Below are positions 10,804-12,360 of a DNA stretch of 14,486 nucleotides, in pieces (the stretch's first letter is position 1; every line of letters begins with the position of its first letter). Origin of the DNA: Nanobdellota archaeon (lineage in GTDB: Archaea; Nanobdellota; Nanobdellia; Woesearchaeales; JAHWHD01); contig JAYENX010000026.1 of assembly GCA_034722435.1 (NCBI GenBank), positions 1 through 14,486 on the forward strand, given 5' to 3'. A program made the position numbers and the translations under genes. Below the pieces are notes generated by a model. That model had not been told where the DNA came from and made no database searches. It saw nothing but the letters and a program-made list of their open reading frames with translations.

Positions 10804-10824
10804 TGTCTTTTTAGAAATTTAAAA

Positions 10825-10886
10825 ATATCTCAGCAGTTACTTCCGTTCATCATTGTATCAGCCGGGAATAACTTCATCATCGACAT
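10825..10886 (-). ncRNA. Double-guide box C/D sRNA (2'-O-methylation guide)
   Basis: Minus strand: ATGTC-G, C box ATGATGA (10880-10874), 12-nt guide AGTTATTCCCGG, D' CTGA (10861-10858), TACA, C' ATGATGA (10853-10847), 13-nt guide ACGGAAGTAACTG, D CTGA (10833-10830), GATAT. All four boxes are perfect; 5-bp terminal stem gives K-turn geometry; own promoter; T-run downstream. Confidence 0.9.
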
Positions 10887-10907
10887 TGTTGATTAAATAT
10901 ATCTTAC

Positions 10908-10922
10908 TATAAAAAGCTTTTT
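10908..10922 (-). promoter_or_regulatory. BRE-TATA promoter of the C/D sRNA
   Basis: Minus strand AAAAAGC-TTTTTATA (TATA 10915-10908), 21 nt before the predicted sRNA 5' end. Confidence 0.7.
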
Positions 10923-12224: not shown

Positions 12225-12360
12225 GCAGTAGTAGCATAATGGTTAGCGCAAGAGCTTGTGGGAATTCTGCAGAAAGTTCTATCTTTAGTAATCAAAGATT
12301 ACTGGGACTTTATAAATCAGGGATTTTAAATGAGTTTGAGTTCGAATCTCAGCTACTGCT
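12225..12360 (+). tRNA. tRNA-His(GUG) with a canonical 37/38 intron (12262-12274) and a second ~50-nt insertion in the variable region (~12281-12330)
   Basis: Acceptor stem GCAGTAG/CTACTGC; D arm GCAT-AATGGTTA-GCGC; anticodon stem AGAGC/GTTCT; anticodon GTG at 12258-12260; T arm TTGAG-TTCGAAT-CTCAG; BHB-type central helix TTGT/GCAG; CCA not encoded. Confidence 0.88.

Follow-up and report, generated by a model that had tools for sequence, protein, structure and literature searches.

A two-guide box C/D sRNA of an uncultivated archaeal order, with guides predicted to address neighbouring sites at the peptidyl-transferase centre of 23S rRNA

Archaeal box C/D sRNAs are compact molecules, with a published norm of ~60 nt and guides of ~12 nt (PMC7229835). 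Several of those described so far are close to the sRNA presented here. RNA-seq-verified sRNAs of M. maripaludis (sR101), T. tenax (sR140), N. equitans (sR03) and I. hospitalis (sR414) carry a D′ module (Dennis et al. 2015, PMC4644070) consisting of box C, a guide to the 23S rRNA word CCGGGGAUAAC and box D′, an arrangement shared with the present sRNA together with its predicted target. Likewise, the D guide of N. equitans sR14 and the D′ guide of M. maripaludis sR106 address the 3′ strand of helix 74 with U2438 (E. coli numbering, hereafter Ec) at position +5, as does the other guide of the present sRNA, and apparent complementarity to that strand is seen in guides of Sac sR128, Mka sR16 and Iho sR425 (PMC4644070 supplement). 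In eukaryotes, yeast snR38 has been found experimentally to guide the methylation of Gm2815 in 25S rRNA (PMC5027498). Dual guides directed at nearby sites, as well as a chaperone action of such guides, have already been published (PMC4644070, PMC7994747). The size of the repertoire differs among species, with 7 C/D sRNAs in M. maripaludis and 26 in N. equitans, and in the same seven-species study targets shared between sRNAs occur only in two species with over 120 sRNAs (PMC4644070). Standard archaeal target rules admit at most one mismatch, at most two G-U pairs and no bulge (PMC4644070), and the archaeal RNP tolerates no more than 10 bp and modifies duplexes of 9–10 bp well, the 8-bp substrate that was tested being left unmodified (PMC7229835).

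The locus analysed here lies in a window of 14,486 nt, which is the whole of one contig in a 60-contig assembly of an archaeal genome (1.30 Mb, 33% GC, rated 94.5% complete). Its element at positions 10825–10886 of the minus strand is confirmed as a real and ordinary archaeal box C/D guide sRNA, 62 nt long from stem to stem (10886 to 10825). The perfect C, D′, C′ and D boxes, terminal stem, promoter and T-run that the initial annotation had described are all present, on the minus strand, in the following order ('own' refers to the numbering of the organism's rRNAs).

10908–10913, minus strand: TATA box TTTATA, 33 nt upstream of box C, at the position where TATA-like words pile up in homologues
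10882–10886, minus strand: 5′ strand of the terminal stem, ATGTC, pairing with 10825–10829 and supported by covariation; likely transcript start
10874–10880, minus strand: box C, AUGAUGA, perfect and invariant in alignment A1, although the search pattern demanded TGATGA
10862–10873, minus strand: D′ guide, 12 nt, to own 23S 2481–2491; position +5 at own G2485 (Ec G2446)
10858–10861, minus strand: box D′, CUGA, perfect
10847–10853, minus strand: box C′, AUGAUGA, outside the search pattern and still found in homologues
10834–10846, minus strand: D guide, 13 nt, to own 23S 2474–2480, plus 2481–2483 if bulged; position +5 at own U2477 (Ec U2438)
10830–10833, minus strand: box D, CUGA, outside the search pattern and invariant in A1
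10825–10829, minus strand: 3′ strand of the terminal stem, GAUAU, supported by covariation
10821–10825, minus strand: run of five T, likely an archaeal termination signal, overlapping the 3′ strand of the stem, with weak support from homologues

The structural hallmarks of an archaeal box C/D sRNA are found together, namely boxes C and D, boxes D′ and C′ separated by a short linker (4 nt, a K-loop), guides and total length of the usual size, and a terminal helix. The helix has 5 bp; one unpaired G separates its 5′ strand from box C in the minus-strand reading, and G-A-U is unpaired on the 5′ side before the sheared GA of box C, a layout that is the geometry of a predicted C/D kink-turn. An ORF scan of the window showed no frame of at least 50 aa overlapping the element, which is flanked by the gene of a Lit-like membrane protein converging on it and, on the other side, by an SNase-like gene. 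In gathering mode, Rfam recognizes only a tRNA in the window and no C/D family passes; in E-value mode, sR1 (RF01152) scores 34.3 bits, snoPyro_CD (RF00095) 23 bits and snoR38 (RF00213) 25.6 bits, with gathering thresholds of 45. The tRNA in question (12225–12360, 136 nt) was missed by ARAGORN. In the genome as a whole, the Rfam tRNA model finds 10 tRNA genes and ARAGORN 14 tRNA-like genes, despite the completeness rating; many tRNAs of this genome are probably interrupted or atypical.

The proteins of the C/D RNP are encoded in the genome, as a check on the initial annotation required: the fibrillarin and Nop5 genes are adjacent on contig C8 and the L7Ae gene lies on contig C36, all as intact open frames (scores of 281.7, 194.6 and 99.9 bits among the three proteins). 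Fibrillarin scores above the cut-off in 40 of 41 genomes, i.e. this one and 40 relatives. It is probable, in our judgement, that the element is transcribed independently as a box C/D sRNA of ~62 nt and that both guides direct 2′-O-methylation of 23S rRNA, at G2446 and U2438, by the mechanism common to the family; that the sRNA is expressed, assembles into an RNP and serves methylation at the two sites is predicted here from the anatomy, complementarity, protein genes, conservation and covariation that were observed. By analogy with the family, L7Ae would bind the terminal C/D kink-turn and the internal C′/D′ K-loop, and a Nop5 dimer with two copies of fibrillarin would assemble on the L7Ae-bound sRNA. 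Each guide would then present for 2′-O-methylation the rRNA nucleotide paired to the fifth position upstream of box D′ or D, so that the D′ guide would pick own G2485 (Ec G2446) and the D guide own U2477 (Ec U2438), the latter through a 10-bp duplex with one guide nucleotide bulged. The guides would act successively on one pre-rRNA, or simultaneously only with the D duplex reduced to 7 bp, and the bound guides might keep this strand of the nascent peptidyl-transferase centre from pairing, in line with the chaperone effect that has been suggested for dual guides.

The first of the two targets is the simpler one. The D′ guide forms 11 contiguous pairs with own LSU 2481–2491 (10 Watson–Crick and one G-U), where about 9–10 bp or more and a Watson–Crick pair at +5 are expected of an archaeal target, and the pair at +5 is C-G. 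Numbering relies on alignment of the organism's LSU and SSU sequences, from the 23S and 16S genes of contig C56, to E. coli rrlH and rrsH fetched by accession (BLAST had found no match to the segment in E. coli genomes). The nucleotide at +5, own G2485, corresponds to Ec G2446, which lies a single nucleotide away from the peptidyl-transferase central loop, and the duplex spans Ec 2442–2452, including G2447, A2450, A2451 and C2452. The equivalent of Ec G2446 in yeast is presumably G2815. The initial annotation had proposed pairing with Ec 2442–2453 including one G-U; the G-U and the numbering were right, and the duplex is 11 rather than 12 bp long, own 2492 (Ec 2453) being A. The target nucleotides that it had named, G2446 for the D′ guide and U2438 with one bulge for the D guide, are borne out by the rrlH alignment, the homologues and the published equivalent guides. 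With −18.1 kcal/mol, the duplex at 2481–2491 is the best that the D′ guide forms in the LSU, and 19 of 21 LSU sequences (this organism and 20 relatives) have the same target sequence. About 2.6% of shuffled D′ guides have an equally good rRNA site, and the G-U of the duplex adjoins the pair to be methylated, which was counted against the main reading.

The second target involves an irregular duplex. The D guide forms seven contiguous Watson–Crick pairs with own LSU 2474–2480, and bulging guide position 8/9 adds pairing of CGG with 2481–2483, for 10 bp in total; its position +5 faces own U2477, which is Ec U2438, in the 3′ strand of helix 74. With the bulge allowed, no other LSU site suits the D guide as well (−13.2 kcal/mol, 4.7 kcal/mol ahead of the runner-up at −8.5), and the genome contains a single copy of the 10-nt target word, the one at this 23S site. 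Pairing of both guides with the organism's own 23S rRNA, on which the initial annotation had made its proposal depend, was found, with 11 bp for the D′ guide and 10 bulged bp for the D guide. When the D guide is shuffled, a 10-bp duplex with one bulge turns up somewhere in the rRNAs for 4% of the sequences, and for 0.15% if the site has to lie no more than 45 nt from that of the D′ guide. The match statistics of the single genome are only modest and the weight of the evidence is comparative. Perfect complements of the 13-nt D guide in the genome are confined to two sRNA genes (see below for the second), and no mRNA or other RNA target emerged. A candidate site at own LSU 1161 was dropped, its pairing being inconsistent across variants of the guide.

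These variants are the most informative part of the comparison. The core GUAACU beside box D is common to 38 of the 74 distinct members of the sRNA family, the D guide not being part of any family-1 search, and of 401 genomes of the order that were searched, 161 have a C′ box followed by this core. Among the variants listed, some are unbulged (CGGAGUAACU or CCGGAGUAACU, 10–11 bp) and others lack CGG (GGAGUAACU or GAGUAACU, 9 or 8 bp). The commonest form, to which the present sRNA belongs, has one extra A or U between CGG and GUAACU or AGUAACU; two extra nucleotides (AA or UA) are found between the same flanks in other versions, and three (AUA) in a further one, seen in the homologue set. The inserts vary in identity and number (0–3 nt) while the CGG and GUAACU flanks stay, and this favours a bipartite, bulged duplex with own LSU 2474–2483 and argues against a different, perfectly matched target. 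Given that the archaeal RNP modifies duplexes of 9–10 bp well and left the one of 8 bp unmodified (PMC7229835), the 7 bp alone would be too few, and the additional CGG pairing fits. The need for a bulge places the D duplex outside the standard rules (PMC4644070), and the comparative data favour the bulged form; a biochemical test of a bulged guide was not found in the literature. The genomes read include unpublished ones (G001, G002, G208, G210, G273, G315 and G337), of which G001 provided same-genus copies of the sRNA, LSU and SSU, G210 and G208 examples of insert variants, and G273 one of the examples of a single A insert. The same insert variants are also present in published genomes (e.g. 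G086, G054, G264 and G035), and the conclusions are independent of the unpublished ones.

Besides the locus in the window, a perfect copy of the D guide occurs in the genome only in a second C/D-type sRNA, located between two convergent genes (contig C58:46301-46370, minus strand; locus L138:1501-1570). Its C′ box and D guide are identical to those of the window sRNA (20 identical nt). The D′ guide of its family pairs with own LSU 2624–2633 and places at +5 own U2627, which is Ec U2552, a conserved methylation site of the A loop. This RNA has a 6-bp terminal stem and degenerate terminal boxes, AUGAUCU and GAUA, which could pair in ordinary Watson–Crick fashion where tandem sheared GA pairs would be expected, and its status as a C/D sRNA is uncertain; in seven relatives the RNA is represented by versions that are canonical or degenerate only in part. 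A search for RlmE/FtsJ gave no strong orthologue in the genome (best Pfam FtsJ match, 29.5 bits), and a protein-only route to Um2552 was rejected on this ground. A-loop Um2552, if present, would depend on this degenerate sRNA.

The presence of one D guide on two sRNAs leads to a different view of its function, which we regard as unlikely, namely that only the D′ guide methylates, the bulged D guide being a non-catalytic docking or chaperone element on the helix-74 strand, common to two sRNAs that are delivered to G2446 and U2552. The identity of the D guide in the sRNA aimed at own U2627 speaks for it, as do the relatives read in detail, which, where an sRNA is recognisable, mostly keep at least one copy of the D guide and in some cases two. 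Bulges lie outside the standard target rules (PMC4644070), and a chaperone role of dual guides is an established proposal (PMC4644070, PMC7994747). However, the Watson–Crick pair at +5 and guide positions 2–7 are the most conserved, as for a catalytic guide, some lineages have unbulged D guides with 9–11 bp, and N. equitans sR14 forms an ordinary 9-bp duplex to the same U.

No further sRNA with canonical boxes was found in the genome by regex scans or by model R1, for which nothing else exceeded 17.4 bits; this model gave 28.5 bits to a relative's sRNA with unrelated guides, so canonical sRNAs should have been seen, while RNAs with degenerate boxes could escape both scans. The recognisable repertoire therefore amounts to two sRNAs, and their primary predicted targets are all around the peptidyl-transferase centre and the A loop. 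A broader proposal can be made, tentatively and with rather little confidence, that the organism has a near-minimal set of two sRNAs with all guides converging on the region of the peptidyl-transferase centre (Ec G2446, U2438 and U2552), in which the duplicated and deliberately bulged helix-74 guide, beyond being a plain methylation guide, would be a common docking or chaperone element, delivering both RNPs to the nascent centre and limiting duplex stability at mesophilic temperature.

A less favoured possibility concerns the D′ guide, the main target of which might be another rRNA word, either LSU 1947–1957 or SSU 113–124 or 787–798, instead of Ec G2446; this appears improbable. The LSU site is the runner-up in energy (−16.4 kcal/mol, 11 pairs including two G-U), is conserved in relatives, and would have own G1951 at +5 (column of Ec C1908); family members with a D guide to own C1963 would gain two adjacent targets under this reading. 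The two SSU sites offer 8–9 contiguous Watson–Crick pairs. Against these sites, LSU 2481–2491 is superior in pairs and energy, and the D′ guide ends in G, which pairs with own C2481, in 29 of the 38 members that have the D guide discussed here, versus 5 of the 36 others. Furthermore, SSU 113–124 varies even within the same genus, including relatives with the same guide, and was discarded as a conserved second target of the D′ guide; SSU 787–798 is inside a lineage-specific insertion. This insertion is an observation in its own right: the 16S rRNA encoded on contig C56 has ~102 additional nt in the 790 loop (own SSU ~768–869), a possible intron or expansion segment with a 10-bp closing stem, and a 9-nt perfect complement to the D′ guide falls within them (own SSU 790–798). 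As to the alternative partner guide, family-1 loci L053, L056, L116 and L120 have a D guide of the GAAGAGAGUUAU type, which addresses own C1963 (Ec C1920), 12 nt downstream. One D′ module may serve two rRNA regions in different lineages. Among the 10–14 detectable tRNA-like genes, no convincing tRNA target was found for the sRNA.

With G2446 retained as the predicted target of the D′ guide, three rRNA nucleotides (own 2481–2483) belong to both fully paired duplexes, as the initial annotation had anticipated, and full use of both guides on one rRNA molecule would be sequential. The guides are also largely complementary to each other, as had been noted, with 7 + 3 bp (−10.7 kcal/mol for the duplex alone), and the minimum-energy fold of the sRNA pairs them (−10.5 kcal/mol including the terminal stem). 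The suggestion was made that the free sRNA could fold shut, and a functional closed hairpin could in principle regulate RNP assembly or guide availability. The minimum-energy fold with its 7 + 3 bp speaks for such a hairpin, which we judge very unlikely to be functional. The fold is no more stable than those of shuffled sequences (z −0.85, 39 of 200 shuffles folding equally well), and the rRNA target is a near-palindrome, so guides to its adjacent halves must be mutually complementary. In addition, the D guide makes a G-C pair with rRNA where it would make a G-U pair with the D′ guide, and matches rRNA better than it matches its neighbour; where the D′ guide has C at position 7, guide–guide pairing drops to 5 bp and the core of the D guide is still kept; and the same D guide also adjoins unrelated D′ guides. 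Self-pairing of the guides looks like a by-product and not a switch, and folding shut as a selected feature is not upheld.

Homologues were searched in one genome per species with a pattern made of box C, the D′ guide and box D′. This search yielded 90 stretches, nearly all archaeal and mostly labelled Woesearchaeota, Nanoarchaeota or Nanobdellota, where simple arithmetic predicts ~9 by chance for the complete collection, most of which is bacterial, and far fewer than 1 for its archaeal part. Pattern loci and relatives' loci together give 83 complete sRNAs, corresponding to 74 distinct sequences (alignment A1). The C′ and D boxes are kept in these homologues though absent from the search pattern, while invariance of the D′ guide in A1 is imposed by the pattern and was not counted as evidence. 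In A1, 83.5% of the cells of the terminal stem are paired, versus 35–49% with the partner column slid, and 117 cells show double changes, a number attained in none of 500 shuffles. Across the 74 homologues, TATA-like hexamers cluster between −36 and −31 relative to box C, with few at other positions, and TTTT occurs within 25 nt past box D in 31 of 74, versus 18 of 74 in a control window, which is weak support for the terminator. Some complete copies are on contigs labelled 'Alphaproteobacteria bacterium' or 'uncultured Methanosarcinales' (L087; L044, L056, L062 and others); these labels are probably binning or taxonomy errors since the sRNA is otherwise confined to genomes of Woesearchaeota type. 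That the boxes, which are short, would be chance words in the AT-rich intergenic DNA of a 33% GC genome, with no gene present, has a negligible probability given the stem covariation and positioned TATA box across 74 homologues, the four-box arrangement found once in the 1.3-Mb genome by pattern scan and not at all in the reversed genome or in three shuffled genomes, and the score of model R1, 77.8 bits at the locus versus at most 17.4 elsewhere in the genome.

Placed beside the known systems, both guide modules of this sRNA are already known in other archaea and the mechanism is unchanged. The module of M. maripaludis sR101 even matches the search pattern built from box C, D′ guide and box D′ of the present sRNA. 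Differences from sR101, sR140, sR03 and sR414 reside in their partner D guides, which are unrelated, and in position 6 of the D′ guide, which is U here and in most members of the order and forms the G-U pair, unlike in the sR101 group. The helix-74 duplexes of sR14 and sR106 are unbulged, with 9 bp in N. equitans and 10 pairs out of 11 with one mismatch in M. maripaludis; in the latter organism the two modules are on separate sRNAs, whereas they are joined in one sRNA here. The likeness to eukaryotic snR38/snoR38 (RF00213) extends to the guide core and the rRNA target word, and the Rfam model gives a weak alignment over the guide and box D′; however, 25.6 bits against a gathering threshold of 45 do not make the sRNA a member of that family, and the eukaryotic snoRNAs are longer, with weak C′/D′ boxes, unlike this sRNA. 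What is particular is the joining of the modules in one sRNA, the duplication of the helix-74 guide in a very small repertoire and the prevalence of its bulged form. No description of C/D sRNAs in this uncultivated archaeal order was found in the literature consulted, to which the present analysis adds an unannotated and well-supported family of guide RNAs. The family hints at which rRNA ribose methylations persist as the guide repertoire shrinks, and its natural series of 0–3-nt inserts constitutes a ready-made test of the tolerance of the C/D RNP for bulged guide–target duplexes.
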